Positions 5,118 through 19,110 of a stretch of DNA of 20,000 nt are shown piece by piece. The notes under the pieces were generated by a model. The model had not been told where the DNA came from. It saw nothing but the letters and a program-made list of their open reading frames with translations, and ran no database searches. Source of the DNA: an uncultured virus (IMG/VR IMGVR_UViG_3300042318_000627) (Duplodnaviria > Heunggongvirae > Uroviricota > Caudoviricetes); IMG/VR virus record IMGVR_UViG_3300042318_000627, positions 53,751-73,750 of that record; one strand, given 5' to 3'. Every line of letters begins with the position of its first letter. Within the stretch, counting starts at the first letter, position 1. The translations under genes were made by a program, and so were the position numbers.

Positions 5118-6857
5118 TTATATATCTCCTTCATTCACATTCATTATGTTATTAAACTCTGCCACAGTTATGCCAAGTGCATCTGCGATTTCAATTGCTT
5201 TTATATTTTTGTATCCCATTGCCAACAATGCTTCACGCTTTTTTGCTGGTGGCAACAAATGAATCTTTTTATTCAATTTTTCAATTTCTTCTGGTGGCAA
5301 TGATTTGATTTTTTTCACATCACCAAACAGTGTAGAAATAAAATCTTTTTGATTTGCATCTGGCTTGCCGGTGTTGGCATCAACATTACTTGCTTTGGTG
5401 AGTGGAGTTGTTGATCCATTGCCGTAACTTCTTTCCAACCAATCAACTTCATAATCATTCAAGTCGCCAGTTTCTTTATGCATGTTTTTGAAAAAGTTTT
5501 TTACCCAATTCCAATTTTTCACAACTTTTTGTGTATTATTCCAAAAACTCATCAGTTTCTTTCTATACCACAAACGACCAAAAATTGTTCCTTGTATGTT
5601 TCTGAAATTAATACCTTGGTTTCCGGTTCTGCCGCCGTTTTTTAAATATTCATGAAATGCACTTGGTTGCGTCAACAGTTCTCTTAACGCAACTATATTG
5701 TCGGTATTTATGCCATTCTTTTCAAGTCTTCTTTGCAAACTTGCGTCGTTGGCATCTGGGCGGTCCAGTAAATATATATACAAAGTTTCCATTGTATCCA
5801 TGATGTCAGCGTGTATTCCACCCACATTGACTATGCTGCATTTTTGTGTGATAATAAAAGCAACAGCATCTGCATCTGTCCATTCAGAAATTTCTTTTCC
5901 CGACAAACCAACCACAGCGTCAGGATCTTCATTTATCAAATCTTTTAGTTTGATATGACCTTCCAGTGCTGGTACAGCAGCATCTGCTCTAGCAGCATAA
6001 TCAAACCCTTTGGCAGCTTTTTTCAAGTGATCTGCTTTATATGTTGATCCAGCTAATTTTTTCTTTGCTTTTGAATCCAGATGTTGAACCGCCAATAGTT
6101 TTTTTATTTCTTCTGGACTCAATTTTTCTTTGTTTGAATTGCCCACAAGTTCTGAATATGCAAACAAACCTCGCGTGTCCACAAATTCATAAGCAAACTT
6201 TGTTTTATCAAGTTTCATTGCACTCATCAACTTTTCAACAAGTTGGAAATTTTCATTTACAATTTCATCCTTGCTGTTCCAAAAACTGATTGCATTTTTC
6301 TTGATCCAAATTCTACCAGCCGGAACAGTGGCTGAATCGTCCGCGTTTCCTCGAATATTCAATTGACGAAAACGCAGTCTATTGTTGTGTAAATAATTTC
6401 TGATTGTTTCAACATCATCACCTTGTTGCTGCAAACCAACAAAACCCACAGTTGCTGCATCATCACCATCATCTTCTTTTTCTGCGTATGAATATGCAGA
6501 TATATTACCAAACACATCACGCTTGATTTTATACATGTTTTTGAACGTGGCGGCATATAAGGTGGCTTTATGTGAAGCTGTTTGCAACATTTCTTCCATG
6601 CTGCCATGGGTGTTTTTTTCAGAATACATTATTACACCAGTTTCAACATCAAAGAAAAAAGCATAAGCATCATTAGATAAATATTTGAATGTTGCACCAG
6701 TTTTTGGCACAGCTGCACCAAGACTGTTTAGTCTTTCTGCATCAGATTTTTTTGTTTTATCATTTGAATTTCCCGACAAATCAATTCTGTCAGGAGATTC
6801 ATCCAATATACTTTCCAACAAAAATTCTATATCAAATGGCAATCTGGGCTTGTTCAT
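5118..6857 (-). CDS. 579-aa protein with internal two-fold duplication, possible head/internal protein
   Basis: Repeated motifs ESPD/EDPD, DAYAF/DAVAF, GRIW..ISFWN/GRLW..MSFWN and LSPEEIKKL..HL/LPPEEIEKL..HL. Confidence 0.8.
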   Translation of the reverse strand: MNKPRLPFDIEFLLESILDESPDRIDLSGNSNDKTKKSDAERLNSLGAAVPKTGATFKYLSNDAYAFFFDVETGVIMYSEKNTHGSMEEMLQTASHKATLYAATFKNMYKIKRDVFGNISAYSYAEKEDDGDDAATVGFVGLQQQGDDVETIRNYLHNNRLRFRQLNIRGNADDSATVPAGRIWIKKNAISFWNSKDEIVNENFQLVEKLMSAMKLDKTKFAYEFVDTRGLFAYSELVGNSNKEKLSPEEIKKLLAVQHLDSKAKKKLAGSTYKADHLKKAAKGFDYAARADAAVPALEGHIKLKDLINEDPDAVVGLSGKEISEWTDADAVAFIITQKCSIVNVGGIHADIMDTMETLYIYLLDRPDANDASLQRRLEKNGINTDNIVALRELLTQPSAFHEYLKNGGRTGNQGINFRNIQGTIFGRLWYRKKLMSFWNNTQKVVKNWNWVKNFFKNMHKETGDLNDYEVDWLERSYGNGSTTPLTKASNVDANTGKPDANQKDFISTLFGDVKKIKSLPPEEIEKLNKKIHLLPPAKKREALLAMGYKNIKAIEIADALGITVAEFNNIMNVNEGDI

Positions 6858-16766: not shown

Positions 16767-17108
16767 TTACCAAAAACTCCTATTCAATTCATATCCTTCA
16801 TTCTGAAACAATGCACAGATTCGATTGTAAATTTCTTTCTTTTGCATCATGTAATGATAATCACGTTCACCTGGTCGAAAATTGCTCCATTGATTTGCTG
16901 CATAACTTTGAGCCAATTGAGCCTTGAGATCATTCACATCTGCATAAGCACCACGAAATCCATAAAGATTATAGTGAGCAATAAATCCGCTTGACAAATA
17001 AAGAAACTTGTAAGCAGAGTTGGTGAGATTATTGATGTCATTTGTTTCAAACACTTTGCGAATGCTTGAAACAATGAGGTCGGTTTGGCGAAGAGTTTTA
17101 AGTTCCAT
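16767..17108 (-). CDS. hypothetical phage protein (113 aa; GFIAHYNLYGF motif)
   Basis: Cassette-led ATG. Confidence 0.85.
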   Translation of the reverse strand: MELKTLRQTDLIVSSIRKVFETNDINNLTNSAYKFLYLSSGFIAHYNLYGFRGAYADVNDLKAQLAQSYAANQWSNFRPGERDYHYMMQKKEIYNRICALFQNEGYELNRSFW

Positions 17109-17380: not shown

Positions 17381-17425
17381 AAATAAAACAATGACTATTT
17401 TTTTATAAAATGCAACTCTTATTTT

Positions 17426-18016
17426 TTAGAATGACTTCAACTTGGCAACTTTTCCTGCGATGGTTTTTTTATGCATATCTGTCAAAGAATACTTGACAGA
17501 CGATTGGCATACATCATAAACAGAACAGCCAAAGCAACGATCATTGAGATTGCGATTGGGATAAACGCAACTGTTTTTAGTTTCATTCTCAAAATTGAGA
17601 GGCACGTGCGGACTCTTGAAGTAGTCAGGATTGCCGCTCCAAGGAAAAATCAACACCTTGGGCTGTTCTGGCTGTTTGACTAGCTCAACCTCACATACAG
17701 GTAGATTCTTGGATGCTTTGGCAGGCTTGGATGACTTATTGTTTAATGCTGGCAGCTTGCCATCATTTGCTTTTAGAATGGCTAATATGCTGTCAGAATC
17801 CCATCCAGCATCCACATATTTCTGCACAGGTCGCAGCACATAAGTCTTGAACAGCTTTTCTTCAGTGCCATATTTCTTGACCACATCCTTGAAGCGTGGT
17901 TCTGGAGCAAATGTTTCTTGACCAGAAACAATGCATTTCCAATAAAAATATTTTCCATTGCCACTGGTTTCAATACCAGAGGGACGAACAATGCGAGCAA
18001 TTGATTTACGAGCCAT
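17426..18016 (-). CDS. hypothetical protein with C-terminal Cys cluster (196 aa)
   Basis: Cassette-led ATG; CVYP...CFGC...VC may bind metal. Confidence 0.85.
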   Translation of the reverse strand: MARKSIARIVRPSGIETSGNGKYFYWKCIVSGQETFAPEPRFKDVVKKYGTEEKLFKTYVLRPVQKYVDAGWDSDSILAILKANDGKLPALNNKSSKPAKASKNLPVCEVELVKQPEQPKVLIFPWSGNPDYFKSPHVPLNFENETKNSCVYPNRNLNDRCFGCSVYDVCQSSVKYSLTDMHKKTIAGKVAKLKSF

Positions 18017-18115
18017 GTTGTTATATTGAACTAAATTTTATAAAAAGCAAGACAAATCTGGCGTGATAAAGTTTTTCGCCACCCACTACGAGACTACTCG
18101 CTACGGTAAAAATTT

Positions 18116-18237
18116 CTCTCACAACACCCAACGTCGCCGCACAGTCTTGACCAATGCCTATTTCATTATTATCAAGATTATAACTGTCGGCAACCAAAAC
18201 ATCAATAGGTTCGTGAAGTTTGTTAGGAGCGTGAGAG
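18116..18237 (-). ncRNA. candidate structured ncRNA domain with pseudoknot
   Basis: Nested complementary segments 18231-37/18116-22, 18222-27/18127-32, 18188-94/18133-39, 18183-87/18141-45, 18172-76/18146-50 and 18164-67/18153-56; loop 18157-62 complements 18204-09. Confidence 0.6.
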
Positions 18238-18268
18238 TCCAAGGAGATCAATCCTCAGAAAGTTTTAA

Positions 18269-18340
18269 TGTGGCGGCGGTAGTTTTCAACCGCTAATACC
18301 CAGCACTAGGAAGGGCTGCTCCATGCTTTGCTTCACCACA
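18269..18340 (-). ncRNA. tRNA-like 72-nt cloverleaf (non-canonical or pseudo-tRNA)
   Basis: 7-bp acceptor-like stem TGTGGTG/CGCCACA; adjacent 5-bp T-like stem GCGGT/ACCGC with non-canonical loop TGAAAACT; CAGC..GCTG arm; no encoded CCA. Confidence 0.5.
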
Positions 18341-18362
18341 AAAAATATTATAAAAGAACTTG

Positions 18363-18456
18363 TCAATCAACTGCATCATGACCTAATTCATTCTGCAATG
18401 CTTCGCTGGCAGTATCCCACCTCGCGTCCGCTAGGCTACGGCTTCTGTTGATTGAC
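18363..18456 (-). ncRNA. candidate ncRNA domain closed by a 10-bp terminal stem
   Basis: Begins at the predicted +1 of cassette 18464-18491; GTCAATCAAC pairs with GTTGATTGAC. Confidence 0.55.
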
Positions 18457-18487
18457 TATCCCAACACTAACAGTGTTTTTATAAAAG

Positions 18488-19093
18488 TCAATAACTAAAC
18501 AAAACTTTCCATTGTCCAGTAGCCAAACCTTTGTTTTCTTTCATTGCTGCATATGAATCTGCGCGACTGGGTATATGATATTCTTCTGTTGCAACAAATG
18601 CAAATGGTTTCATAGAGTTTTTGGTTCTGCTGTTTAAGAATTGAGAATAAGCATATTTCAGAACATCTGGATTGAATGTAACAGCATCCTTTTTGGAAAA
18701 GTTCATCACAATTTGTTTTGACGTTGGATTATAAAGAACAAACTGTTGTGCATCTTTATAAATGATGGTTTCTTGAACATATTTTTTACCCAACTTCACT
18801 GCATCATCAAATGAAATTTCTGGAATAAATAATGATCTTTCTTCGGCGGGAGTGCCATCATCATATGTGTATCCAGACTTTTGCTCAATATATCCATGCT
18901 TCAAAGCACGCACATCCGCTTTTAATTGTGCAAACAACTCTAGGTTTTTTTCTAAAGTATTTTCATTTCTGAATGGAGAAATAACAGCAAAACTTTCGCT
19001 GTTGGTGACATGTTGCCATACACGACTCAATGTTGTTTCATTCACAACTTTGAATTTATTTCCGCCGATGTTCTCAAAAATGTTATTTACCAT
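18488..19093 (-). CDS. conserved-type phage protein (201 aa; NETTLSRVWQH...FAVISPFR...ERSLFI...QETI)
   Basis: ATG at 19093 is preceded by ATATTTATT rather than the early cassette; AT-rich codons. Confidence 0.85.
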   Translation of the reverse strand: MVNNIFENIGGNKFKVVNETTLSRVWQHVTNSESFAVISPFRNENTLEKNLELFAQLKADVRALKHGYIEQKSGYTYDDGTPAEERSLFIPEISFDDAVKLGKKYVQETIIYKDAQQFVLYNPTSKQIVMNFSKKDAVTFNPDVLKYAYSQFLNSRTKNSMKPFAFVATEEYHIPSRADSYAAMKENKGLATGQWKVLFSY

Positions 19094-19110
19094 AACAATA
19101 AATATCAAAC

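Follow-up and report, generated by a model that had tools for sequence, protein, structure and literature searches.

Stable RNAs encoded beside phage tRNA genes have been known since T4, the annotation of which places rnaC (species 1, 139 nt) at 70908-71046 and rnaD (species 2, 119 nt) at 71053-71171, immediately after tRNA-Arg. ROOL and GOLLD, which are much larger, occur at the same address, and none of these RNAs has an assigned function. ROOL and GOLLD are both described as phage-encoded, without an assigned function and “often near tRNA islands”; kissing loops build their tertiary and quaternary structure, and many GOLLD RNAs are over 800 nt long (PMC12286853). A further set, the candidate structured RNAs (csRNAs) mined from IMG/VR (10,006; 8,495 IMG/VR candidates), is characterized as intergenic, covarying, 29–151 nt long and in many cases tRNA-like (PMC10690425).

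Here we analyze a stretch of DNA of 20,000 nt (the window), which forms the final 20 kb of an IMG/VR virus record of 73.75 kb, with an estimated completeness of 27% for the record. An initial annotation had flagged an RNA domain of 122 nt on its minus strand, at 18116-18237, which we call the rod. Comparison with its homologs shows that the rod is real: a Y-shaped non-coding RNA conserved among uncultured phages of lakes. No catalogued RNA family includes it, and it represents an undescribed family of a known but unexplained kind. We think that it is probably one cassette in a phage-encoded array of stable non-coding RNAs, such as occur in the tRNA islands of phages, and that it would act in trans.

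The Locus and Its Relatives

The close relatives of the window are a complete phage record of 297 kb (G001) and a 56-kb fragment (G002). Among 50,697 phage records, no cultured phage matches the locus (blastn) or either of the flanking proteins (tblastn), and for the PhoH-like gene at the start of the window the best identity to a cultured phage is only about 32%. Lake water is the label of the 14 public DNA runs that hold half or more of the stretch. Six public runs recorded as RNA hold 9–23% of its words, and contigs from four RNA runs, compared over 17400-19100, cover the rod and the flanking genes; these contigs are assembled and may stem from DNA carry-over, so that neither transcription nor the ends of an RNA can be read from them. 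They include forms that skip 18261-18351 or 18261-18451, and identical variants occur in DNA contigs.

Versions of the rod were collected from the loci around relatives of the 196 amino acid long protein encoded downstream and by pattern scans, and were confirmed with a covariance model (R1). Ten distinct versions were found, with 73–92% identity to that of the window; the family is small, its ten sequences falling into about four groups. Three pattern scans of IMG/VR with independent anchors (the loops, the base helix and the hairpin P0, all described below) led to the same eight viral contigs. The first of them, anchored on the loops, returned 114 stretches, eight of which are real; 112 of the 114 were run through R1 and six matched, while the two left out (L136 and L215) are further copies of G001 and G002. 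A match of an earlier pattern, L011, lies in a high-GC coding region and was discarded as a chance match. The rod is single-copy in each genome: blastn found no paralogs in G001 or G002, and R1 with filters off found none in 100 kb of the tRNA-island and rod regions of G001 and G006, the latter belonging to a second phage lineage (see below).

Cellular genomes gave a single pattern match, on a 4.2-kb contig (L242) of a MAG labeled uncultured Flavobacteriia, and R1 had no match in 150 other genomes from the class of this MAG. On L242 a phage-type tRNA/tmRNA operon and the rod are binned in a bacterial MAG, which may hint, weakly, at the host or may mean that a phage contig was mis-binned.

A Covarying Fold on the Minus Strand

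All the helices named in the initial annotation are present on the minus strand (18237-18116). The rod folds at −43.1 kcal/mol, compared with −26.4 ± 3.3 kcal/mol for dinucleotide shuffles (n = 200; z = −5.12), and none of the 200 shuffles is as good; its plus strand folds at only −29.1 kcal/mol (z = −2.71). The strand had also been called correctly: two U-G pairs, one on each side of an AA bulge, are the same in every one of the ten versions and would be mismatches on the other strand, which establishes the minus strand. When 326 segments of the minus strand, each 122 nt long, were scored in a coarse scan against 15 shuffles apiece, the rod came second, and z ≤ −4 was found for seven of the segments. 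Folding energy thus does not set the rod apart in this stretch of DNA and would not, by itself, carry the claim of a structure. Two minus-strand segments inside ORFs, 5666-5787 and 16951-17072, fold as strongly as the rod (z = −6.3 and −5.3, noisy values from 15 shuffles each).

It is covariation that makes the structure more than chance. The initial annotation had pointed to homologs as the place to look for compensatory changes, and these are present. In an alignment of the ten versions fitted to the structure (A6, P0 included), 94.4% of 569 cells are paired and 17 of the 57 pairs are changed on both sides; none of 500 shuffles attains these values, and pairing falls to 33–44% of cells in a control with slid partners. 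Because the ten sequences form about four groups, the number of independent events behind these counts is small. From a plain MAFFT alignment of nine versions, RNAalifold derives 13 compensatory pairs among 36. Examples are CUUGA/UCAAG, which becomes CUCGA/UCGAG, CUUCA/UGAAG or CCUCA/UGGGG; AAUG/CAUU, which becomes AGUG/CACU; and CCUAAC/GUUGGG, which becomes CCUGGC/GCUGGG. The version in L036/L037 is an exception, in which the 5′ strand of the lower P4 helix is changed without compensation and pairing is lost. By this pattern of substitutions, the fold of the rod is under selection.

We find it hardly credible, then, that the locus holds no functional RNA and that the signal reflects a fold arising by chance, a hairpin at the DNA level or a gene for a small protein. 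It is true that two ORFs of 76–77 amino acids overlap the rod (18021-18251 on the minus strand and 18063-18296 on the plus strand) and that several coding segments fold about equally well. However, the compensatory changes and the invariant U-G pairs contradict such a reading, eight of the ten versions have stops in all six frames, indels of 1–2 nt between versions break the frame, and neither ORF has a PHROG or Pfam match.

A Three-Way Junction with Two Complementary Loops

The base helix of the rod (P1 and P2) pairs 18237-18222 with 18132-18116 on the minus strand. It carries a side hairpin, P3 (18221-18197, with the loop CGAACCUAU at 18213-18205), and a long, bent arm, P4 (18194-18133), which ends in the apical loop AAAUAGG (18163-18157). 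Within P4 there are a one-sided internal loop of 6–8 nt, at 18183-18178, and the invariant AA bulge between the two invariant U-G pairs. The segment 18221-18197 had been described as a one-sided bulge of about 27 nt. It is in fact the hairpin P3, in which four of seven pairs are changed on both sides (e.g., AAAC/GUUU to UGGU/ACCA). The rod is therefore a three-way junction, and the pseudoknot proposed in the initial annotation becomes a contact between two loops.

The candidate partners in this contact are CCUAUU in the P3 loop (18204-18209) and AAUAGG in the P4 apical loop (18157-18162). Both are invariant in all ten versions; the first base of the apical loop varies among A, G and U. The complementarity of the two words (18209-18204 with 18162-18157) is real, and the computed duplex energy of CCUAUU with the apical loop is −6.3 kcal/mol. 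For the pairing itself, the five testable pairs never vary in the ten versions, and since both loops are invariant, covariation neither supports nor refutes it. In composition-matched shuffles, at least five contiguous pairs arise with a chance of 1.1% for the two loops and of 29% over all unpaired segments. The loop motifs matter, as shown by their staying fixed while the internal loop and many stems vary. We put the chances that the P3 loop pairs with the apical loop at about even, and the contact may be either intramolecular or intermolecular.

The initial annotation had not recognized the domain, and this is borne out by database searches: no Rfam family matches the rod in the window or in its relatives. 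Rfam gave nothing at gathering score in the whole window. In 17900-18600, with E-values up to 10, it gave three chance-level matches (E-values 2.5–5.2), which lie outside the rod and far below gathering scores, and in the loci of seven relatives it gave tRNAs, tmRNA and weak noise only (manA, E-value 0.058, in another module). ARAGORN found no tRNA in the window, and a tRNA scan of the whole 73.75-kb record found none; the Rfam models RF00005 and RF00023 gave no tRNA or tmRNA match in 17900-18600, and the same tools find the tRNAs and tmRNA that neighbor the rod in its relatives.

A three-way junction with complementary distal loops is an architecture type of some small ribozymes. By analogy, the rod could be a new self-cleaving ribozyme or a ligand-binding aptamer, the core of which would be organized by the loop-loop contact across the junction; many of its unpaired bases are invariant, and the transcript in which it sits has to be divided. 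We nevertheless give a ribozyme or aptamer, both of which had been suggested in the initial annotation, very little chance. No Rfam ribozyme or riboswitch model matches, even at E-values up to 10, and there are almost no conserved unpaired bases at the junction to form a core. In the tRNA-operon contexts there is no regulated gene downstream: in the relatives, the rod is followed by RNA modules or tRNA genes and not by a gene that could be regulated. The third suggestion, a protein decoy, is possible.

The RNA Unit and Its Promoter-Like Motif

Between 8504 and 19820, small genes stand in an array on the minus strand, and a separate promoter-like motif belongs to each of them. The 29 copies of this motif consist of a TTG-type −35 element, the word TTTTATAAAA and a CAnTAT-type −10 element, and 26 copies have an ATG at a fixed distance of 19–21 nt after the TTTTATAAAA word. 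This distance leaves no room for a leader or a ribosome-binding site, which suggests that the array genes are leaderless early genes. The copy that belongs to the RNA unit (18464-18491, minus strand) is made up of TTGACT (18491-18486), a 16-nt spacer with TTTTATAAAA, and TAGTGT (18469-18464), and it overlaps the stop codon of the ORF at 18488-19108. It is one of the three copies without an ATG; at the ATG position begins the first stem of a structured module, M1. From the register of the motif, transcription would start near 18456.

M1 (18362-18456, minus strand) is a predicted four-way junction of 95 nt, with a 10-bp closing stem and three hairpins. On seven distinct versions, RNAalifold gives 29 pairs with 96.1% of cells paired, five pairs being changed on both sides. 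One arm of M1 contains a tandem GA/GA, and the module has no Rfam or tRNA match. It is followed by the first AU-rich spacer (18340-18361, minus strand; AAGTTCTTTTATAATATTTTTT). A related spacer (ATTTTGTTCTTT..AAA..CTTT) lies after the 3′ end of tRNA-Lys in L242, and one is also found after each non-tRNA module in L183, L242, L021 and L036; the AU-rich spacer is a candidate processing site. Then comes M2 (18270-18339, minus strand), a module of 70 nt delimited from its sequence and alignment, in which the closing stem (6 bp) stacks directly on a hairpin of 5 bp (GCGGU/ACCGC). M2 is about the size of a tRNA, and the stacked stem and hairpin followed by an A recall an acceptor stem and T arm; neither ARAGORN nor the Rfam tRNA model calls it a tRNA. 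A second spacer lies between M2 and P0, a 7-bp hairpin with the loop UUGAUC (18239-18258, minus strand) directly in front of the rod. In P0, 95.7% of cells are paired, and one pair changes from A-U to U-A in two versions.

Directly after the rod there is a AAAUUUUU tail (18108-18115, minus strand), in which AAAUUUU is invariant in all ten versions and which may be a processing site or a protein-binding tail. The two tail hairpins (18059-18100, minus strand), CGAG-UAGU-CUCG at 18100-18089 and UGGCG..CGCCA at 18081-18059, are kept in the window, L006, L029, L034 and L036. Behind them, L034 and L036 have a U-rich run and next a tRNA-Leu(taa), and the hairpins probably mark the end of the RNA unit. 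The next gene (17426-18016) has a promoter motif and ATG of its own at 18014-18050 on the minus strand (TTGCT at 18050-18046, ATG at 18016-18014), and the distance of 19 nt from the 10-mer to its ATG agrees with that in other units, so that this gene does not require the structured gap as a leader. The order of the unit is promoter motif, M1, spacer, M2, second spacer, P0, rod, AAAUUUUU and two tail hairpins. We infer that the gap is not a leader but an ORF-free transcription unit of about 400 nt, with the start and end of the transcript placed by prediction.

Such a layout raises the question of whether the rod serves only the transcript that contains it. As a cis-acting element of a polycistronic transcript, it would be punctuation for the processing, protection or termination of tRNA/RNA operons, and would be functionless once released. 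The rod always lies between other RNA genes, with conserved AU-rich spacers on its flanks and the invariant AAAUUUU behind it, and a long closed stem would block exonucleases. On the other hand, punctuation or a terminator needs no three-way junction of 122 nt, nor a pair of invariant loops or an AA bulge kept without change between U-G pairs, and a terminator scan did not call the rod, the base helix of which is followed by AAA and then UUUUU. Many tRNA-operon junctions in the same genomes have no rod, which is present in a single copy, and in L022 and L026 no RNA that it could protect lies upstream, the rod itself coming first after the promoter. A purely cis-acting role is in our opinion unlikely.

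Gain and Loss of Modules and the tRNA-Island Context

The set of modules differs from one strain to another. The window and L023/L101 have M1, M2 and the rod; G001 and L029 have M1 and the rod without M2; L022 and L026 have the rod alone, without M1 and M2 and first behind the promoter. M2 is also present in L021 (which has extra inserts), L034 and L036. L049 has M1 (446-539) without the rod, and in L027 the tail hairpins are the sole remnant behind the promoter. Even near-identical strains differ in their module sets, with breakpoints at the spacers, and by these comparisons the rod is a cassette that is swapped between strains. Because close relatives such as L027 and L025 are without it, it is dispensable.

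In the second lineage, distantly related to that of the window, the rod lies inside tRNA/tmRNA operons. One strand of L242 carries tRNA-Arg, tRNA-Glu, tRNA-Lys (223-299), a 24-nt spacer, P0 and the rod (318-465), structured modules, tRNA-Met (889), tmRNA and tRNA-Val, and the layout is of the same kind in L140/L147/L183 and in L150/L190/L199. In these seven loci and in L034 and L036, where a tRNA-Leu comes after the unit, the rod lies within a tRNA gene cluster and on the tRNA strand. In G006 (140 kb, 84% complete) it is inside the main island, which has 23 tRNAs and a tmRNA. In G001 a cluster of six tRNAs ends 2.3 kb upstream of the rod, and the record that contains the window ends just short of the equivalent place; the tRNA-island context is indirect for the window itself, since there is no tRNA within 20 kb there. 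P0, the AU-rich spacers and tRNA genes are the constant companions of the rod, and no protein gene is among them.

G006 and G001 are, by sequence, only distantly related. Their blastn matches amount to 7.2 kb in 140 kb, mostly at 65–83% identity, and their GC contents are 43% and 37%. The rod, which is one of these matches, is 73.5% identical between the two, and shared genes are 65–68% identical. The presence of the rod in two such lineages, and the differences in M1, M2 and rod content between near-identical strains with breakpoints at spacers, might suggest a selfish or mobile cassette, the modules of which spread by recombination at the shared spacers and have folds that serve their own transfer or maintenance. 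We see little chance of this. The rod is single-copy in each genome, and no terminal repeats, integrase or endonuclease stand beside it in the stretches read. It also diverges at about the rate of the shared genes, which fits vertical descent, or an old transfer, under RNA-level selection.

Other parts of the islands are conserved between the two lineages. Two non-tRNA stretches, one at G006 67506-67724 and G001 88468-88682, and the other at G006 68591-68700 and twice in G001 (88120-88229 and 89077-89180), have 81–83% identity between G006 and G001. The tRNA islands seem from such stretches to hold several RNA modules of no known identity. ARAGORN and Rfam both find a tmRNA of the phage's own in L183 (2115-2485), L190 (656-1024), L242 (985-1353) and G001 (107795-108185), and in the G006-type lineage the rod is followed by the tmRNA at a distance of a few hundred bases. 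In the tRNA island of L183, just upstream of the rod unit, there is a promoter motif of the window type followed by a short ORF starting ATGAAACTAATA (1171-1385); its product reads like a small hydrophobic protein.

Neighboring Proteins and a Proposed Mode of Action

The gene downstream of the rod (17426-18016, minus strand) encodes a 196 amino acid long protein of an unannotated family with 81 database homologs. The protein has five invariant cysteines (C28, C150, C161, C164 and C170) and no Pfam or PHROG match. As a partner of the rod it was rejected, since it was not found in any of five rod-bearing records of the other lineage; moreover, the rod is present in only 11 of the 99 loci fetched around relatives of this protein. 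Ro60 (TROVE) and RtcB were found in none of the five phage records searched, and the TROVE search was positive in control genomes. The gene upstream of the rod (18488-19108, minus strand) matches DUF3293 at 26.5 bits (cut-off 25) and, below cut-off, the S-adenosylmethionine lyase family (21.2 bits; cut-off 28). Its database homologs bear both Pfam labels, and it may be a SAM-lyase-like early gene.

If the rod is, as we favor, a stable RNA acting in trans, it would be transcribed early, either from the promoter of its own unit or within a tRNA operon, and host enzymes that take tRNA precursors apart would release it at the AU-rich spacers. It would then fold into a compact particle, possibly closed by the contact between the P3 and apical loops, and, serving as a decoy or scaffold, would bind a protein or RNA that belongs to the RNA or translation machinery of either host or phage. 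Regulation of a neighboring gene by the rod would not be expected. A bolder proposal, which we regard as a long shot, is that P0 and the rod (approximately 160 nt) represent a new class of self-organizing phage RNA. In this proposal the complementary loops would close a triangular particle or link copies head-to-tail into rings or chains, as miniature counterparts of the ROOL and GOLLD cages, and the RNA, expressed early from tRNA islands, would trap a factor of the host that serves tRNA, translation or defense.

Comparison with Known Phage RNAs

The rod resembles rnaC and rnaD of T4 in several respects: all are small structured RNAs of similar size, without an assigned function, on the tRNA strand inside a phage tRNA cluster, and rnaC also folds strongly (z = −4.57). 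However, rnaC ends in a tRNA-type T arm and the rod does not. R1 with filters off found nothing at rnaC or rnaD, the best score in a 5-kb stretch of T4 being 7.5 bits (E-value 1.3) at another place. Homology with the two T4 RNAs was considered and rejected, there being no match in sequence or structure.

A second group of RNAs tied to tRNA biology, like the rod, consists of the tRNA-like and Y-RNA-like (YrlA) RNAs, which the stacking of M2 recalls through its similarity to an acceptor stem and T arm. YrlA differs in that neither the Rfam Y-RNA and tRNA models nor ARAGORN matches the rod or M2, and in that TROVE is missing from all five phage records. The csRNAs of PMC10690425 come from the same data source and, by their description, are the same kind of object as the rod. 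Four signature words of the rod are absent from the six files of that catalogue that were searched.

With ROOL and GOLLD the rod family shares the phage tRNA-island address, and where those RNAs have kissing loops, the rod has two invariant complementary loops. GOLLD was first seen in lake metagenomes, and the rod family also comes from lake-water data. The sizes differ: 122–160 nt for the rod, against several hundred nucleotides for ROOL and GOLLD. The Rfam models of ROOL and GOLLD have no match in the window (at gathering score), in 17900-18600 (E-values up to 10) or in the loci of seven relatives (E-values up to 0.1).

The rod family extends the stable RNAs of phage tRNA islands by a small example, which covariation defines well and which has a simple architecture with two invariant complementary loops. 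It is common to two distantly related groups of large lake phages, in which it is swapped as a cassette. These phages and their hosts are uncultured; an RNA of 122–160 nt lends itself readily to transcription, probing, mutagenesis and use as bait. If the reading of the rod as a self-organizing particle were true, the family would offer a small and tractable model for the unexplained link between ornate RNAs, such as ROOL and GOLLD, and the tRNA islands of phages.
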